64,000 nucleotides of DNA, taken from NCBI GenBank assembly GCA_035627595.1, contig DASPLK010000005.1, forward strand, positions 3,877 through 67,876, in the 5' to 3' direction. This DNA is from Minisyncoccota bacterium. Its GTDB lineage: Bacteria > Patescibacteriota > Minisyncoccia > Phycocordibacterales > Phycocordibacteraceae. The stretch's first letter is position 1, and each line of letters opens with the position of its first letter. The notes below the pieces were generated by a model. That model was given only the letters and a program-made list of their open reading frames with translations. It was not told where the DNA came from and did no database searches. Shown piece after piece: positions 27,685-45,372 of this stretch. Made by a program: the position numbers and the translations under genes.

Positions 27685-27915
27685 ATGGAGACACTCAAGG
27701 CGATACTGCCGTACATAGAAATCACCCTCTCCCTTCTCCTTATTATAGGGATCGTGCTTCAACAGCGCGGTGCCGGCCTCGGAGGAGCGTTTGGCGGTGA
27801 CAATTTCGCATCGACGTTCTACAAGCGCCGCGGGGCGGAGAAATTCCTTTTCAACGCCACAATCGTTATTGCGGTCCTTTTCGTCGCATCGGCGATCGCC
27901 GGGTTCCTCATCTGA
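27685..27915 (+). CDS. secG: preprotein translocase subunit SecG
   Basis: 76 aa from METLKAILPYIEITLSLLLIIGIVLQQRGAGLGGAFGG, the classic SecG glycine-rich loop between two TM helices. Confidence 0.8.
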   Translation: METLKAILPYIEITLSLLLIIGIVLQQRGAGLGGAFGGDNFASTFYKRRGAEKFLFNATIVIAVLFVASAIAGFLI

Positions 27916-27928
27916 TAGGAAACCCTAC

Positions 27929-29653
27929 ATGCGCTATAGCTGGAGACAGCTCACGGACCGACACGAACAACGTACTCGCTTTCCTCTTATAGAGGACGCG
28001 GTTTTGTATATTCGTAGCCTCCCGCCGAGCGACCGGCTAATCGCATACGTGCTCACAGGCCTTGCAGGCCTTTCCGTACTCGTCGGCCTCTTTGCCCTTC
28101 AGCGTTCGTTCCTCATCGAAGAGCCTGCCTATGGCGGCAGCTTCACCGAGGGGCTCGTCGGGACGCCTCGATTCATTAATCCGCTTCTTGCGCTTACTGA
28201 TACCGATCGCGACCTCGCGCGTCTGACGTACGCAGGACTCATGGGCACCAGTGGCGACGGTACTCTCGTTCCAGTGCTTGCAGAAAGCTACACGGTCGCG
28301 GATACCGGACTCGTGTATACGTTCACACTTCGTGCGGATGCCCAGTTCCATGACGGAACGCCCGTAACCGCAGAAGATGTCGTGTTCACCGTTCAGAAGG
28401 CGCAGGACCCGGGGCTGAAGAGCCCTGAGCTCGCCAATTGGTCGGGCATACGCGCAGAAGCTGTCGACTCACGTACGGTGCGCTTTACCCTCCCGAGGGC
28501 ATACGCGCCGTTTCTTGAGAAGACCACCCTGGGCATCCTGCCTTCGAGCCTATGGCGAGATGTATCGAACTCACAGTTCCCGTTCTCTCCTTTAATGGTG
28601 CGTCCGGTGGGTGCCGGCCCCTTCAAAGTCGAGAATGTTCGTCAGAACAAGGAGGGCTTTATCACAGGCTATACCCTCTCTGCTTTTGGCGAATACGCGC
28701 TCGGTCGTCCGTATCTCGATCGCATTTCGTTTGCGTTCTTCGATGAAGAGGACGCTCTCTCATTTGCGCTCAGGAACGGAAGAATCGACAGCGCGTACGG
28801 TGTCGCACGCGAGGGCGCGCTTGAGGCTCCGTACGCCCGCGTGTTCGGAACGTTCTTCAACGAGAACGCCAACCCGGTCTTCGCTGATGCTGATGTGCGC
28901 CGTGCGCTTTCGCTTGCAATAAACCGCGAGGCCATCACCAATGTGATACTTGGCGGCTACGCGACCCCAATTGCAGGACCCGTGCCACCAGGTAGCGGTA
29001 TCGAGCTTACGCCGATACCGACTGCGGAGAACCGCATCCGTGCGGCCGCAGACATCCTGGAGGAAGCCGGATGGACGTACGACGACGAGGCGCGCCTTTG
29101 GGACAATCCGGACGTTGAGGCAGAACTGCGCGTCACGCTGCGGACCTCAAACGTACCGGAGCTAAAGACCATCGGCCAGCAGATCCAGGCAGATTGGGCT
29201 GCACTTGGGGTACCGACTTCGCTTGAACTTTTTGAGCCGTCGGATCTCACGCAGAACGTCATTCGTCCGAGAAACTACGATGCCCTTCTGTTCGGTATGA
29301 TCGTTGGGCGTGACCGTGATCTCTATGCGTTCTGGCACACCCAGGAGCGCTCTGATCCAGGCCTTAACATTGCGCTCTACAGCAATACTGAAGTGGACGC
29401 ATTGCTTGAGCGTCTGCGAACCCAGAGCGACCCTGCGGTACGCAGTGAAGCTCTGCAAGCGATCGAAACCGCAATTGCAAGCGACTACCCAGCAGCCTTT
29501 ACGCACGCGCCTACCTTCGTGTACGCAGCGCCTAGAGGAATGAAGGGTATCGAGCTTCCGCAGATAGGTGCACCTTCTGACCGATTCGCGACAGCGGCCT
29601 CCTGGTATCGCAATACACAGGAAGTGTGGCCCATCTTCGCGAAGCGTCAGTAA
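27929..29653 (+). CDS. ABC-type solute-binding protein family 5 (peptide/nickel SBP fold) with an N-terminal TM anchor
   Basis: 574 aa from MRYSWRQ. One TM helix is followed by an SBP_bac_5-like domain. No permease or ATPase genes are adjacent. Confidence 0.75.
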   Translation: MRYSWRQLTDRHEQRTRFPLIEDAVLYIRSLPPSDRLIAYVLTGLAGLSVLVGLFALQRSFLIEEPAYGGSFTEGLVGTPRFINPLLALTDTDRDLARLTYAGLMGTSGDGTLVPVLAESYTVADTGLVYTFTLRADAQFHDGTPVTAEDVVFTVQKAQDPGLKSPELANWSGIRAEAVDSRTVRFTLPRAYAPFLEKTTLGILPSSLWRDVSNSQFPFSPLMVRPVGAGPFKVENVRQNKEGFITGYTLSAFGEYALGRPYLDRISFAFFDEEDALSFALRNGRIDSAYGVAREGALEAPYARVFGTFFNENANPVFADADVRRALSLAINREAITNVILGGYATPIAGPVPPGSGIELTPIPTAENRIRAAADILEEAGWTYDDEARLWDNPDVEAELRVTLRTSNVPELKTIGQQIQADWAALGVPTSLELFEPSDLTQNVIRPRNYDALLFGMIVGRDRDLYAFWHTQERSDPGLNIALYSNTEVDALLERLRTQSDPAVRSEALQAIETAIASDYPAAFTHAPTFVYAAPRGMKGIELPQIGAPSDRFATAASWYRNTQEVWPIFAKRQ

Positions 29654-29727
29654 TTTTCATAGCACGATGCATACGCATCCATGCTTTAATCAAATTTAAA
29701 TCGTTATCTACGTAACCTACTCTAACT

Positions 29728-31647
29728 ATGTCAGCAGCACCTGCGCCGGCACCGGCGCCACAGAACTCCCCCGCTCCCCATTCCTCAAATCCACGCCCTG
29801 AGGGCAAGCCTCGCTCCCGTGGAGGTCGTGCTCGCAGCGGCGAACGACGCAGCGGGCCCAATCCGCGCGGTGGACGTGGAAGCCGTCAAATGCGCCGGCC
29901 TATGCACCGCCCAGGCGGCCCTTCTCAGATGACCGGACAGAAGCGCGCGGCCGACTACAACCCGGCAGATCCGGGCGCTAACGTTGTCCGCATCGTTCCT
30001 CTAGGCGGCGTTGAGGAAGTGGGACGCAACATGTTTTGCGTCGATACCAACGGCGACATCTTCGTCTTTGACGTGGGCTTCCAGTTCACGAGCGAGGATG
30101 AGACCCCGGGAGTCGACTATGTCCTCCCGAATACCAAGTACCTCGAGATGAACCAGCACCGGGTGCGTGCCGTGTTCATCACGCACGGTCACCTGGACCA
30201 TATCGGCGGCATTCCCTTCCTTATGAACCGCTTCGGCAATCCCCCTATCTACACGCAGAATCTTTCTGCGGTCATGATCGCTAAGCGTCAGGAGGAGTAC
30301 CCGGATATGCCTAAGCCAAACCTTGTCGTGGTCGAACCAGGTTCGACCCACACCATCGGCAGCACGAGGGTTCACTTCTTCCCCGTGACGCATTCGATTC
30401 CAGACTCGATGGGTATCGCTGTCGAGACGCCATACGGCAACGTCATCGCAACGGGCGACCTCAAGGTCGACCACCATGATGAGGTCATCACCCCTGCAGA
30501 GGTAAAGAAGTGGGGCGAGCTCGGCAAGCAGAAGAACCTTCTCTTTATTGCCGACTCCACCAACGCTGAGATCGCCGGATTCTCCGTCCCGGAGCGCAAA
30601 GTCCACGAGACGCTTGAAGAGATTTTGAAGACGGTGAAGGGACGCCTCATCATCGGCACCTTCGCATCGCAGTTCGAGCGCATGATCAAGATCATCGAGA
30701 TGGCCGAGCACCATGGCAAGAAGATCATCATGGAGGGACGGTCTATCAAGACTAACCTTGAGATCGCGCAGAAAACCGGCCTCCTTACCGTTAAGAAGGA
30801 AACCTTCATCAGCGCGCAGGAAATCGGCGACTACTCTCCCGATAAGATTGTCATCCTCGCGACCGGTGCGCAGGGTGAGGAGTTTGCTGCGCTCATGCGC
30901 ATGTCGACGAAGCAGCACAAACACATCACGCTTAATGAGCGTGATACGGTAGTGCTCTCCTCCTCGGTTATTCCGGGCAATGAGCTATCGGTCCAGAAGC
31001 TGAAAGACAACCTCTTCCGCAGCAAGGCGACTCTCATTCATTACCGCACCAGTGACGTGCACTCCGGCGGCCACGGCCGCGCAGGCGAGCTCGTCTGGAT
31101 CAATCAGCAGGTGAACTCGGCGTTCTTCATGCCGGCGTACGGCTACTACTCGATGACCGCATCGCATGCTAAGGCAGTCGAGCAAGCAGGCAGGCCACGA
31201 GAATCAATCATCCTTGCTGAGAACGGCATGGTCATTGATATCATCGACGGCGAGCGATACGAAGTTCATAAGGACAAGGTCCCGTCCGCTCCCCTAATTG
31301 TGGACGGCTTCGCAATCGGCGACATGCAGGAAGTAGTCATCCGCGATCGCCAGATGCTTGCTAAGGATGGTATGTTCGTCATCATCGCGACGGTTAACCT
31401 AAAGACAGGAAAGCTTCGCAAGTCCCCCGACATCATTTCCCGCGGTTTCGTATATCTCAGGGAATCGCAGGACATGCTGAACGAGGCGCGTCTTCTCATC
31501 AAGAAGACGGTTGAGGATTCGACAAAGGGCATGAACCCGGTCGACCTCGACTACGTGAAGAACCAGCTCTCCGATACGGTTGCCGGCTTCCTCTTCTCGA
31601 GGACCAACAAGGCACCGATGGTGATTCCGGTCCTGATTGGCGTCTAA
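29728..31647 (+). CDS. rnj: ribonuclease J (metallo-beta-lactamase/beta-CASP) with a ~95-aa Arg/Gly/Pro-rich N-terminal extension
   Basis: HGHLDHIGG motif, beta-CASP and C-terminal domain. The N-terminus is low-complexity (PRSRGGRARSGERRSGPNPRGGRGSRQMRRP). Confidence 0.9.
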   Translation: MSAAPAPAPAPQNSPAPHSSNPRPEGKPRSRGGRARSGERRSGPNPRGGRGSRQMRRPMHRPGGPSQMTGQKRAADYNPADPGANVVRIVPLGGVEEVGRNMFCVDTNGDIFVFDVGFQFTSEDETPGVDYVLPNTKYLEMNQHRVRAVFITHGHLDHIGGIPFLMNRFGNPPIYTQNLSAVMIAKRQEEYPDMPKPNLVVVEPGSTHTIGSTRVHFFPVTHSIPDSMGIAVETPYGNVIATGDLKVDHHDEVITPAEVKKWGELGKQKNLLFIADSTNAEIAGFSVPERKVHETLEEILKTVKGRLIIGTFASQFERMIKIIEMAEHHGKKIIMEGRSIKTNLEIAQKTGLLTVKKETFISAQEIGDYSPDKIVILATGAQGEEFAALMRMSTKQHKHITLNERDTVVLSSSVIPGNELSVQKLKDNLFRSKATLIHYRTSDVHSGGHGRAGELVWINQQVNSAFFMPAYGYYSMTASHAKAVEQAGRPRESIILAENGMVIDIIDGERYEVHKDKVPSAPLIVDGFAIGDMQEVVIRDRQMLAKDGMFVIIATVNLKTGKLRKSPDIISRGFVYLRESQDMLNEARLLIKKTVEDSTKGMNPVDLDYVKNQLSDTVAGFLFSRTNKAPMVIPVLIGV

Positions 31648-31718: not shown

Positions 31719-32873
31719 ATGCGTCCGCGCTTCGCTCTTTCTCTCGGCAATTTCTTCGTCTGCGTACACCATGCGCTGATGCTCTATATCACGACGCCCT
31801 TTCTGGCTACCGTGATGCCTGAGAATTTCATTGGCCTTGTTCTATCTCTAGGCGCACTCTTCTCGCTTTGTGCATTTCCATTTGTGCCGCGCCTCGTGCG
31901 CAACCTAGGCGCGAGGCGCCTAGCGTTGTGGAGCATAGGTCTCAGTGCCTGTTTCGTACTTTCTCTTGCACTTAACCTGCCGCCCCTTGCGGTAGTCTTT
32001 GCGTATGCGTTATTTTTTGCGCTTACCCCTATCAATGCTTATTTTCTCGACCTGTTACTCGAGGCAGCTACAAAAGGCGCCGGCGAAACCGGGCGCGTTC
32101 GTACGCTTTTCATTACCTTTGGTAATCTCGGGTACTTAAGCTGCGCGCTAGGTATAGGACTCCTGCTAGGCAGTGGAGACACGTACGCGAATATCTTCTA
32201 TATTGCCGCGGTCGCACTCATACCATTCCTTCTGATGCTTCGGTTCGCGCATGTGCCTGACGGTGATCCGCCACGGTTCGCGCACATCCTTGAGGTAGCG
32301 CATTGCCTCATCAAGGATAGAGATTACAAGGCGGTAGGTGTCGCATATCTCACGCTCCAGTTCTTCTTTAACCTTGTCCCGTATTTCATACCACTCTACC
32401 TCCACACGGTCCTCGGCATCCCCTGGAGCGAGCTTGGATGGATATTTGCCGTTATCGTCATACCGTTTCTTCTGCTTGAATACCCTGCAGGCTGGCTTGC
32501 CGATAAGGTATTGGGCGATCAGGAGCTTATGGCGATAGGCTTTCTTGTCATGGGCGCAGCGACTGCAGCGATCGCGTTCACAACGGCCGCAACACCCATT
32601 CTTGCCATTGGCGCTGTACTTTTTGTATCTCGCATCGGCGCGGCGCTCGCCGAAGCCATGTGCGAGACGCACTTCTTCAGACGCGTATCCGAACGCGATG
32701 CAAACTCGGTTGGGGTATTCCGCATGATGCGTCCCATGGGCGCTGTTGCTGCACCTCTTACCGCGAGTGTCTTCTTGAGCGTCTCAAGCTTCAACATTAT
32801 GTTTTTCGTGGTTGGCCTAGGCATCATTGTCTTTGGCGTTGCGGGAGCCCTCTCCATTAAGGATGTACGCTAG
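31719..32873 (+). CDS. MFS transporter
   Basis: 384 aa with 12 predicted TM helices. Confidence 0.8.
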   Translation: MRPRFALSLGNFFVCVHHALMLYITTPFLATVMPENFIGLVLSLGALFSLCAFPFVPRLVRNLGARRLALWSIGLSACFVLSLALNLPPLAVVFAYALFFALTPINAYFLDLLLEAATKGAGETGRVRTLFITFGNLGYLSCALGIGLLLGSGDTYANIFYIAAVALIPFLLMLRFAHVPDGDPPRFAHILEVAHCLIKDRDYKAVGVAYLTLQFFFNLVPYFIPLYLHTVLGIPWSELGWIFAVIVIPFLLLEYPAGWLADKVLGDQELMAIGFLVMGAATAAIAFTTAATPILAIGAVLFVSRIGAALAEAMCETHFFRRVSERDANSVGVFRMMRPMGAVAAPLTASVFLSVSSFNIMFFVVGLGIIVFGVAGALSIKDVR

Positions 32874-33673
32874 TCCTTGAGGCAATAGACGCCATTACGT
32901 TTTTCTACGAGACCCTCACGAACAAGTTTCAGAAGTTCCGCTGATACCTGCTCTTTCCGCTCTTCGCCTAGTATGGTGCTGAGGGAGCGCTTAGTGCCTG
33001 CCGCTAACGTGCGCAGTATGGCACCTCGAGCTTCACGGCTAGAACCCTTGAATGCGGTTTGTTTTACATACCCTCGAACTTTGTGGTTCGTGCGTACCCC
33101 GTTTCGCTTCAAGTGACTGCCGTAGTCCATGAGCGCCCACTGCCATTCTCGAGCCATGCCCTTAGGCTGCGCTTTCTCAAGCACTGTGCGTATCTCGCTA
33201 TCCGCAACCGACTCCTGGTCTTGGAAGCAGTGATGCACGATAACAGTGCGGATGTTCGTCTCTAAAAGTAGCGTGTCTTCGTTATATGCAAATGCGGCCA
33301 CAGCACCCGCGGTATACGGGCCTACGCCAGGCAAGCGCTCGAGTGCCACTGCCGTCTTTGGGAAACTGCCACCATATTCTGTGACAACTGTCCGCGCAGC
33401 CTCATGGAGCATCTTTGCTCTGCGGTTATACCCAAGTCCCTGCCACACTCGTAGTACATCCGAGAGTGGCGCATCTGAAAGCGTCTGGACGCTTGGGAAA
33501 CGCTTGAGAAACTTCCCGTAGTATGGAATGACACGCTCGACCTGTGTCTGCTGTAGCATCACCTCGGAGATAAGAATCTTGTACGGGTCGCGCGTCTTAC
33601 GCCACGGAAGCGTATGGCGTCCGTATTCTTTATAGTAGGAAAGGACGAGTGTCCTAAGCTTCCTCGGCGTCAT
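32870..33673 (-). CDS. MutY-like HhH-GPD DNA glycosylase (short form lacking the Fe-S cysteine cluster and the C-terminal MutT-like domain)
   Basis: YYKEYGRHTLPWRK, ISEVMLQQTQV (E37 equivalent), GLGYNRRAKMLHEAA and the LPGVGPYTAGAV helix-hairpin-helix are present. There are no Cys ligands after the HhH. Start chosen at MTPRK (33673); the ORF is open further upstream. Confidence 0.7.
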   Translation of the reverse strand: MTPRKLRTLVLSYYKEYGRHTLPWRKTRDPYKILISEVMLQQTQVERVIPYYGKFLKRFPSVQTLSDAPLSDVLRVWQGLGYNRRAKMLHEAARTVVTEYGGSFPKTAVALERLPGVGPYTAGAVAAFAYNEDTLLLETNIRTVIVHHCFQDQESVADSEIRTVLEKAQPKGMAREWQWALMDYGSHLKRNGVRTNHKVRGYVKQTAFKGSSREARGAILRTLAAGTKRSLSTILGEERKEQVSAELLKLVREGLVEKRNGVYCLKD

Positions 33674-33887
33674 TTGCGACCGACTCGACGTGAGTGATCG
33701 TTGAAGCCTCAGGGATGATGATAGCCGCGATGATATAGACGATAACACCCGGAATAATCGCAGAGAAGATAATGATGAGGAGATACGCGAGGCGCAGGAT
33801 GACCGGGTCGATATTAAAATACTCGCCCAGTCCGCCAAGGACGCCTGCGAATATTCTGTTCTCCCTGCTTCTGTAGAGTTTCTTCAT
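33654..33887 (-). CDS. PspC-domain protein
   Basis: 77 aa: RIFAGVLGGLGEYFNIDPVILRLAYLLI followed by a TM helix. Confidence 0.7.
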   Translation of the reverse strand: MKKLYRSRENRIFAGVLGGLGEYFNIDPVILRLAYLLIIIFSAIIPGVIVYIIAAIIIPEASTITHVESVANDAEEA

Positions 33888-44073: not shown

Positions 44074-45372
44074 TTAACGCTTCTCGATGAACGTGAGCGC
44101 CTTGCCGGTCTTGCCCGCGCGGCCGGTACGGCCGATGCGGTGGGTATAGTCCTCGTACGTACCCGGGAGATCGAAGTTGATCACGTGGGATACGCCCGAG
44201 ATGTCGAGGCCGCGAGCCGCGACATCGGTCGCAACCAGCACCTGGACATGGTCAGCCTTGAAGAGGCTAAGTGCCTTCTGGCGCTTACCATGGGTCTTAT
44301 CGCCATGGATGCTTTCTGCCTTCACACCTGCACGCATGAGGTCCTTAGTGAGACGCTCGACGCCATGCTTGGTGCGTCCGAAGACAAGCACCTTATCGAA
44401 CTCAGGGTTCTTCAGAAGGTCCACGAGAGTCGTGAACTTCTGCTCAGAGCCGTTACAGTAGACGACGTCCTGATCGATGGTTGCCGCGGTCTCCCGGGTC
44501 TTAACCATGATGCGGACTGGGTCCTTAAGGAAGTCGCCGATGAGGCGCTCGATATCGCGCGACATGGTCGCGGTGAAGAAGAGCGTCTGGCGATCCTTGG
44601 ACATCTTGCCGACGATGAAGCGCATGTCTGGGATGAATCCCATATCGAGCATGCGGTCTGCCTCATCGAGAACGAGTGTCTCGAAGTCTGCAAAGTTGAG
44701 CTCGCGACGCTCCTCAAGGTCCTTCAAACGTCCCGGCGTACCGATGACAAATGCAGGCTTGCGACGTAGCTGGCGGATCTGCGGCTCAAGGCCTGCGCCA
44801 CCCACACAGACGACTGCGGAGATACCGAGACGCTTAGCGAATCCGTAGAACTCGGCCTCGATCTGGATAGCGAGCTCGCGGGTCGGTGCCATGATAAGGA
44901 TACGCTCATCCTTCCCAAGCGCGCGCATCTTCAATACCTTGTCGATGAGCGGAATAAGGAAGGACGCGGTCTTTCCGGTACCGGTGTTTGCGATACCGAC
45001 GACATCCTTACCCTGGAGCACCTCCGGAATAGACTGGTCCTGGATCGGAGTCGGGGTCATGTATCCCTTGCCGAGTATGTTCTCCTTCAGCTGGCTGTCG
45101 ATCTTGAAGTCAGCAAAGGTGTGCACCGGAGCGTACACCTCCACCTCCTGCTGAGGCTGAGCCTTGTTAATGAGCATCGAAATATCGACGTTCATTTCCT
45201 GATAGTTGCGCTTGCCACGAGAGTTGCCTCCCGAGCGAGGTGCGCCTCCTCCGCCTGAACGGCGAGGAGAGGAGCTGCCTCCGCCCTTGCGGCGGCGCTG
45301 GCCCTCAGGAAGAGGACCCTTGTAGTGACGAGGCGGACGTGCGTCCGTACGTCGGATATATGTTATAGCCAT
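44074..45372 (-). CDS. DEAD-box ATP-dependent RNA helicase with an Arg/Gly-rich N-terminal low-complexity region
   Basis: Q-motif (FADFKI...TPIQ), GTGKT, DEAD (VLDEADRMLDMGF), SAT (TAT), HRIGRTGRAG. Start chosen at MAITYIRR (45372). The track ORF extends to 45795 but would run through a promoter-like element, a 15-bp hairpin and the upstream gene. Confidence 0.85.
   Translation of the reverse strand: MAITYIRRTDARPPRHYKGPLPEGQRRRKGGGSSSPRRSGGGGAPRSGGNSRGKRNYQEMNVDISMLINKAQPQQEVEVYAPVHTFADFKIDSQLKENILGKGYMTPTPIQDQSIPEVLQGKDVVGIANTGTGKTASFLIPLIDKVLKMRALGKDERILIMAPTRELAIQIEAEFYGFAKRLGISAVVCVGGAGLEPQIRQLRRKPAFVIGTPGRLKDLEERRELNFADFETLVLDEADRMLDMGFIPDMRFIVGKMSKDRQTLFFTATMSRDIERLIGDFLKDPVRIMVKTRETAATIDQDVVYCNGSEQKFTTLVDLLKNPEFDKVLVFGRTKHGVERLTKDLMRAGVKAESIHGDKTHGKRQKALSLFKADHVQVLVATDVAARGLDISGVSHVINFDLPGTYEDYTHRIGRTGRAGKTGKALTFIEKR

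Follow-up and report, generated by a model that had tools for sequence, protein, structure and literature searches.

The rnj gene in a 64,000-nucleotide stretch of contig DASPLK010000005.1 (assembly GCA_035627595.1, hereafter the window) encodes an RNase J in which the metallo-β-lactamase core is preceded by a long basic N-terminal extension. The host is a tiny-genome Paceibacterota bacterium of the candidate phyla radiation (CPR), and RNase J is its main RNA-degrading enzyme. Comparison with relatives indicates that the N-terminal region is under purifying selection and contains at least three constrained motifs, and the extension is a translated, constrained and predicted-disordered tail on an intact RNase J, probably working mainly as a polycationic RNA-capture arm.

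Anatomy and start site of the RNase J extension

The 639-aa product of the rnj open reading frame (ORF) matches the Pfam families Lactamase_B (aa 99-250, E=1.3e-16), RNase_J_b_CASP (PF22505, aa 304-429, E=2e-42) and RNase_J_C (PF17770, aa 537-638, E=2.8e-24), with no Pfam domain assigned within aa 1-98. Bacillus subtilis RNase J1 (PDB code 3zq4) is matched with E=8.5e-131, query aa 89-637 aligning with residues 11-553 of the 555-residue chain. The HGHLDH metal motif (HxHxDH type) is found at aa 153-158. Across 95 aligned homologues His-153, His-155, Asp-157, His-158 and the remaining metal ligands never vary, which makes the enzyme appear catalytically intact; the ORF product is judged from these features to be a complete RNase J with predicted exo- and endonuclease activity. 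In the solved RNase J chains from Bacillus, Staphylococcus, Streptomyces, Thermus, Deinococcus and Mycobacterium, chain residue 5-25 aligns with query residue 80-89, which sets the excess over canonical RNase J at about 75-85 residues. The original prediction had described an extension of about 95 aa; the extension stands, but the figure is too high as the interval flagged includes the first 8 residues of the core, whose motif VVRIVPLGGVEEVG has aa 86 as its first residue. The low-complexity peptide quoted with it (PEGKPRSRGG...GPSQ) corresponds to aa 24-67. The accompanying statement that canonical RNase J starts directly at the core is borne out for the solved model-organism chains, with full-length Helicobacter pylori RNase J (PDB code 8cgl), in which the core begins at residue 144, as the sole exception having a long N-extension.

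The extension is divided into four blocks, A to D, whose positions and ratios of nonsynonymous to synonymous difference (pN/pS) are given in Table 1. With synonymous sites saturated between species (pS 0.58-0.74), conserved sequence in rnj can be read as selection. Block A, with a pN of 0.10, forms the extreme N terminus, and 106 of the 109 long homologues have its motif M-x-x-(AP)3-5, also written M-[ST]-x-(AP)4. A six-frame reading of 582 kb of related DNA gives 69 occurrences of (AP)≥3, all at RNase J N termini, and (AP)4 is for this reason regarded as a dedicated motif rather than a genomic habit. All four codons are in use for both amino acids of the repeat across 64 loci (Ala: GCA 112, GCT 74, GCG 62, GCC 17; Pro: CCA 94, CCG 71, CCC 51, CCT 49), and because third positions vary freely, selection at the protein level is preferred. 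Selection on the RNA, as a cause of the GCNCCN repeat or of the leader upstream, was considered and rejected, given these free third positions, the absence of an Rfam match in the leader or repeat and the absence of any σ70 promoter-like or terminator-like match in the leader.

Block B is poorly conserved at single positions, with composition and net charge being kept across the 64 species. Block C has the clade consensus RPGRVSRQIRRTLRRPxGPS, in which at least 95% of sequences keep Arg-57 and Arg-61 and 87-93% keep Arg-47, Arg-56 and Pro-62, and 59 of the 109 homologues contain the motif R.[IML][RQ]R.[LM].R. Block D carries the motif KKxADYxPxxPxxNV, with Tyr-77 and Pro-79 invariant in 95 sequences and [DE]YxP present in 108 of the 109 homologues. 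The original description of the region as rich in Arg, Gly and Pro therefore holds for its composition but overlooked the conserved motifs of another kind, (AP)4, the basic R-x-[IM]-R-R and DYxP.

Table 1. Positions of the rnj leader, the RNase J extension and the helicase gene in the window
Feature	Position	Strand	Residues	pN/pS	Basis or remark
Intergenic leader 5' of rnj, AT/C-rich	29654..29727	+			sequence; no Shine-Dalgarno
rnj coding sequence, full length	29728..31647	+	639 aa plus stop		ORF
Block A: start codon and cap M-S-A-(AP)4	29728..29760	+	1-11	0.17	first ATG after in-frame stop
Block B: variable, indel-rich R/G/P/S spacer	29761..29865	+	12-46	0.72	gap-rich alignment
Block C: arginine-rich basic motif	29866..29925	+	47-66	0.63	reads RGGRGSRQMRRPMHRPGGPS in this genome
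Internal ATG, start in public 581-aa annotation	29902..29904	+	M59		P0002
Block D: motif next to core	29926..29985	+	67-86	0.56	KRAADYNPADPGANV; predicted ordered
Core		+	87-639	0.18	
DEAD-box RNA helicase	44074..45372	-	432 aa		ORF; NCBI P0274, same start
Helicase N-terminal R/G-rich basic tail	45187-45372	-	~62 aa		net charge +12

An in-frame stop at 29713-29715, four codons 5' of ATG 29728, makes this ATG the first possible start. The DNA of the loci of 80 species representatives was read directly, and in 64 of them x-x-(AP)4-5 comes right after the first ATG that follows the upstream stop; the frame has thus stayed open there despite saturated synonymous divergence. Among the best 120 database homologues, 108 are called with an extension of 74-122 aa and 12 begin at an internal methionine. 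The closest relatives are 76-94% identical and labeled Candidatus Paceibacterota, Parcubacteria or Patescibacteria. The concern that the extension might be a mis-prediction missing from relatives is removed by its presence in essentially all close ones. The internal methionines Met-55, Met-59 and Met-68 are not conserved and align with columns of mostly Ile, Leu, Gln or variable residues (Leu in 61% of homologues at the column of Met-59), which leaves no alternative start that is conserved. The comparative evidence indicates that the true N terminus is encoded by ATG 29728 and that the extension is genuinely translated, for which the expected N-terminal tryptic peptide of the long form is (M)SAAPAPAPAPQNSPAPHSSNPR.

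What speaks for an internal start is in large part annotation. The NCBI model P0002 is 100% identical but only 581 aa long with the first residues MHRPGGPSQ, starting at Met-59, and the further short entries point the same way; however, P0085 (NCBI model, 576 aa) comes from the contig of locus L003, and the DNA there codes for the entire MSTAPAPAPAP... extension. On reading the DNA, both short models are start-site miscalls that truncate the tail. About 10% of the closest database entries of the family, including the NCBI model for the same genome, begin at such non-conserved methionines, with the annotation consequence that the tail is deleted from them. At aa 55-59 (29890-29904) this genome and its closest relative, P0001, read RQMRRPM, with Pro-58 and two methionines, compared with RQIRRTL in the clade, a lineage-specific change that produces the internal ATGs that mislead gene callers. 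The lack of a Shine-Dalgarno sequence before ATG 29728 also appears to favor an internal start but is uninformative, since such motifs are scarce window-wide (about 4 of 39 ORFs, scanned over the 25 nt upstream of window ORFs ≥200 aa); for the same reason it was rejected as a peculiarity of rnj. Many starts in the window follow a stretch that is AT/C-rich and poor in G, in some cases with TATA-like strings near the ATG, and initiation that is Shine-Dalgarno-independent or leaderless is suggested for this lineage.

Composition, charge and predicted disorder

Against a background of 13,085 segments of 72 aa from 39 ORFs of the window, aa 2-73 of RNase J is the most extreme by Arg + Gly + Pro content and by hydrophobicity. 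Arg, Gly and Pro together make up 54% compared with a mean of 18% (standard deviation 5) for all segments, hydrophobic residues 4% compared with 36% (standard deviation 8), and the net charge is +14 compared with -1.4 (standard deviation 4.2). Across the 64 species the tail is 92±11 aa in length with 17% Arg, 16% Gly, 19% Pro and 13% Ala; hydrophobic residues account for 9% of the tail and 36% of the catalytic body, and the net charge of the tail is +11.6±1.8 (range +9 to +17) with that of the catalytic body being -4.7. The charge is held although pN/pS is 0.56-0.72 in blocks B-D, which suggests that selection acts on tail charge rather than on sequence. The charge is positive in all genomes over the range of 37-65% GC, Lys taking part of the place of Arg at low GC; the Arg/Lys share correlates only weakly with GC content (rho 0.24, p=0.04), and the relation is accordingly qualitative only. 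A signal peptide or membrane anchor in the tail was rejected, there being no hydrophobic stretch.

AlphaFold2 was run twice, on the window protein with a 95-sequence alignment and on a consensus-type homologue, P0008, with 99 sequences. In the window protein aa 1-72 have a predicted local distance difference test score (pLDDT) <50 and are without secondary structural elements assigned by DSSP. In P0008 aa 1-69 have pLDDT 33-43, the sole helix being a three-residue turn in Block C, and residues 71-80 (~73-82 in the window protein) have a mean pLDDT of 89 and run into the first core strand, E84-91; the mean for aa 71-80 in the window protein's own model is only 69. Packing of a consensus-type Block C on the core as a helix was also considered and is not seen in the second run, in which this block has only the three-residue turn at pLDDT <50. 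Block D appears in these models as an ordered N-terminal addition of ~15 residues that is continuous with the metallo-β-lactamase core, and the disordered part is predicted to be ~70 residues (aa 1-~70). The real, low-complexity and predicted-disordered extension of the original prediction is thus supported by both model confidence and composition, with the exception that disorder was ascribed to its whole length and Block D is predicted to be ordered.

The tail alone has no match in Pfam. Searched against PDB chains as an 85-aa sequence it finds none at E≤10, with 8cgl included in the library, and so it is not detectably homologous to the H. pylori extension. Under the definitions of the RGG-motif literature (tri-RGG, di-RGG, tri-RG and di-RG with spacers of 0-4 residues), the RNase J tail has two isolated RGG triplets and satisfies the di-RG definition only, without a di-RGG, tri-RGG or tri-RG cluster. 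Among the 109 long homologues tri-RGG is found in 9, di-RGG in 36, tri-RG in 55 and di-RG in 84. The earlier label of RGG/RGR-like is therefore a loose description.

A compositionally similar tail had also been noted on the DEAD-box helicase encoded in the window, and this is confirmed, with the helicase tail being the second most extreme in composition after aa 2-73 of RNase J. It is conserved among ~100 homologues, which begin MATTYI[RV]R..., continue with an RG-rich spacer and then GKRNYQEM, and have a net charge of +9 to +18. The enzyme is annotated as RhlE-like by some sources, and some of the homologues have a further upstream segment, …SAYEAGM[KR]FA…. In a six-frame scan, R/G-rich segments occur in RNase J, the helicase and one 152-codon open frame that is probably no gene, and no other annotated protein of the window has one.

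Proposed function and alternative readings

RNA capture or tethering that boosts activity would be the most economical reading of the tail because a constrained charge is placed beside an acidic body together with an arginine-rich motif. A tail with a charge of ~+12 beside a catalytic body of ~-5 would raise the local RNA concentration at the enzyme and may hold substrates during 5'-exonucleolytic and endonucleolytic attack, with Block C as the putative main RNA contact and the R/G/P spacer giving flexible reach. Parallels would be found in the C-terminal domain of RNase E, with its arginine-rich segments, and in the N-extension of H. pylori RNase J, which is predicted to be disordered (PMC10700544) and is required for full activity in vitro (PMC3592473). 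The disordered regions of RhlE helicase likewise promote RNA binding and unwinding (PMC11260450). The (AP)4 cap is a short linear motif of its own, for which a rod of the polyproline-II type is expected; speculatively, it could serve in partner docking or in shielding the free disordered end from proteolytic engagement.

Several observations weigh against an RNA-capture arm. RNA binding is deduced only from charge and composition, and low AlphaFold2 confidence is a proxy for disorder and not proof of it. The strongest conservation in the tail belongs to the uncharged (AP)4, which RNA capture cannot explain. Block C is degenerate in this genome (RQMRRPMHRP): at position 58 the Thr of the clade is replaced by Pro, which makes a strict helical arginine-rich motif less likely. 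Many CPR RNase J enzymes have no tail, so RNase J in small genomes can function without one.

A possible but doubtful alternative is a degradosome or condensate scaffold, in which (AP)4 and Block C would recruit the helicase and perhaps PNPase or the ribosome, the R/G spacers would cluster with RNA, and the tail would form an RNase J-centered equivalent of the RNase E C-terminal domain. The tails of RNase J and the helicase do share an architecture of N-terminal motif, RG spacer and core-adjacent motif, invariant short motifs inside a disordered region are typical of partner-docking sites, and the disordered region of RhlE2 binds RNase E and phase separates (PMC11260450). However, in H. pylori neither the binding of RhpA nor the stimulation of its ATPase requires the N-extension (PMC3592473), no shared motif is found in alignments of the RNase J and helicase tails, and the two genes are unlinked, being 12.4 kb apart on opposite strands with no shared operon. 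A membrane-targeting or amphipathic helix such as that of RNase E is also lacking. It is unlikely, in a stronger form of the same idea, that the (AP)4-capped RNase J tail and the MATTYIRR-capped helicase tail are the halves of a minimal RNA-decay hub of an origin independent of RNase E and Helicobacter, with the (AP)4 rod docking a partner; were this true, RNase J and not RNase E or Y would be the degradosome scaffold in a major uncultured branch of the bacteria.

It is quite improbable that the basic tail anchors RNase J to ribosomes or pre-ribosomes, where the enzyme would act in the maturation of rRNA 5' ends and in co-translational decay. RNase J matures the 5' ends of 16S rRNA in Firmicutes, and these roles would be important where ribosome biogenesis factors are few. 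A published survey gives CPR bacteria about half the usual number of such factors, yet rnj is preserved (PMC12641178), and the helicase gene in the window adjoins bipA, the gene for a ribosome-assembly GTPase. This evidence is purely circumstantial and with present data not distinguishable from that for generic RNA binding, and (AP)4 is left unexplained.

Neutral accretion of low-complexity sequence, tolerated because it is disordered, would fit the fast evolution and many indels of blocks B-D and the continuum of CPR tail lengths from 0 to >300 aa, but this functionless drift is very improbable given that (AP)4, Arg-57, Arg-61, Tyr-77 and Pro-79 are invariant or nearly so, that the net charge is confined to the narrow range given above in 64 species, and that the tail persists across a clade with saturated synonymous sites. 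The start-site artefact, with translation from Met-55, Met-59 or Met-68 and the upstream frame an untranslated leader, is close to refuted by the evidence on the start codon.

Comparison with known systems and distribution across the CPR

Disordered appendages organize bacterial mRNA decay in the form of the RNase E C-terminal domain, the RNase Y N terminus and the H. pylori RNase J N terminus. The last of these, in the RNase J-RhpA minimal degradosome, is the closest in kind: at 132-136 aa it is longer than the present tail, is likewise N-terminal to the metallo-β-lactamase domain of a canonical RNase J, is predicted to be disordered as here and is not resolved by cryo-electron microscopy, and both extensions are lineage-specific. 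In both cases the DEAD-box helicase also has a predicted disordered tail, C-terminal in RhpA and N-terminal here. The differences are that the two extensions have no detectable sequence similarity, that the present tail, unlike that of H. pylori, has its own motifs, (AP)4, RQIRRTLRRP and DYxP, with no counterpart in Pfam or the PDB, and that H. pylori also has RNase Y. Published papers (including PMC10700544) term the RNase J N-extension 'unique' or 'specific to Helicobacter', a status that the present sequence comparison contradicts as far as the kind of extension is concerned.

The RNase E C-terminal domain, of the Escherichia coli degradosome and the Caulobacter bacterial ribonucleoprotein body (BR-body) scaffold, is likewise a disordered, arginine-rich region on a principal mRNA-decay nuclease with motifs set amid variable low-complexity sequence. 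It belongs to an unrelated nuclease, however, is at the opposite terminus and is 400-500 aa in length compared with ~70 aa here. RNase E also has a membrane-targeting amphipathic helix, whereas no helix of more than three residues is predicted in aa 1-70 and hydrophobic residues make up 4-9%; partner sites, too, are mapped for the RNase E scaffold and not for the present tail. The RhlE1 and RhlE2 helicases of Pseudomonas aeruginosa similarly have basic disordered regions on an RNA enzyme, which improve both RNA binding and unwinding and can also bring about phase separation and binding to RNases (PMC11260450), with the difference that these are C-terminal and on helicases and those here are N-terminal and on both a helicase and a nuclease. 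Eukaryotic RGG/RG regions are R/G-rich, disordered and positive as here, but the present tail is only of the di-RG class, and in the clade Pro (19%) and Ala (13%) are as abundant as Gly.

The tail with the (AP)4 cap marks a clade with at least 72% core identity and genomes of 47-65% GC, whose record titles include Kaiserbacteria, Paceibacterota, Parcubacteria and Minisyncoccia. Loci L002, L004-L006, L011, L015 and others, and L024, have the titles 'uncultured Candidatus Saccharibacteria' or 'Bacillota bacterium'; these labels are probably wrong or generic because the RNase J is 78-82% identical to that of Paceibacterota/Kaiserbacteria and has the clade-specific cap. More distant Paceibacterota (48-61% identity, 37-41% GC) have unrelated basic tails of 47-110 aa with a charge of +13 to +22 and more Lys. 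In a library of representatives at 50% identity, many of the nearest RNase J sequences (~30-58% identity) have basic low-complexity N-extensions of 60-330 aa with charges of +6 to +29, and canonical entries (~550-560 aa) in the same library are without an N-extension. A CPR-centered profile search with 97 hits gives N-tails of ≤15 aa in 29, 16-39 aa in 38 and ≥40 aa in 30, and the Portnoybacteria RNase J (558 aa) has no tail.

Basic N-tails are thus, as far as sequence comparison goes, frequent but patchy on CPR RNase J with the motif-bearing version being clade-specific, the CPR-wide breadth being drawn from the record titles of the 80 loci and a few named hits. The tail would accordingly be seen as a lineage-specific acquisition in a Kaiserbacteria-like clade of Paceibacterota and as one case of a patchy CPR tendency toward basic RNase J N-tails. 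Some representatives (P0149, 874 aa; P0169, 908 aa; P0179, P0211 and P0269) have N-extensions of 160-350 aa, and some of the very long extensions are A/K/P-rich with repeated KRRGRPPKN (AT-hook-like) units. A DNA pattern scan of metagenomes for M-x-x-(AP)4 returned at least 121 matches, of which 4 listed are RNase J N termini of this clade. No second protein family with this cap emerged among the matches listed, the rest being unrelated high-GC low-complexity sequences or short ORFs, and the scan is uninformative on partners.

In the literature on RNase J together with Patescibacteria or the candidate phyla radiation, as far as titles, abstracts and a term search of one paper go, no description of this tail was found. 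The present comparison shows a strongly conserved, motif-rich and unrelated RNase J extension in a large CPR clade and a patchy continuum of basic N-tails. These point to repeated, convergent tail acquisition in organisms where, according to the survey cited above (PMC12641178), just three ribonucleases are preserved, namely RNase J, RNase III and PNPase (genes rnj, rnc and pnp). The window has no gene for RNase E, G or Y. The earlier statement on RNase E and Y is thus literally correct, but 64 kb is too small to establish a genome-wide absence, so the argument carries no weight and the relevant support comes from that survey (PMC12641178).

The rnj gene is flanked by genes for a solute-binding protein and an MFS transporter. 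A stem-loop of 5-9 bp with species-varying sequence is often present 45-60 nt 5' of the rnj ATG (examined at -90..-30 in loci L001-L077), and the window copy lies at ~29666-29679 (GATGC-atac-GCATC). The sequence GTGC[AG] is seen in 25 of the 64 loci, for the most part between -50 and -40, compared with 4.7±2.0 expected from shuffles. The hairpin signal is weak, with an overall score only ~2 standard deviations above shuffles. The hairpin could terminate the upstream gene, or it could protect or regulate the rnj mRNA at its 5' end. Elsewhere in the window, the longest ORF of an HhH-GPD glycosylase (32870-33838, - strand) starts at TTG with a likely true start at MTPRKLRTL..., and that of an SBP_bac_5 protein (27770-29653, + strand) starts at GTG with a likely true start near MRYSWRQL...; the ~55-60 S/R/L-rich residues added by these TTG and GTG starts look like over-extended calls and not real tails.

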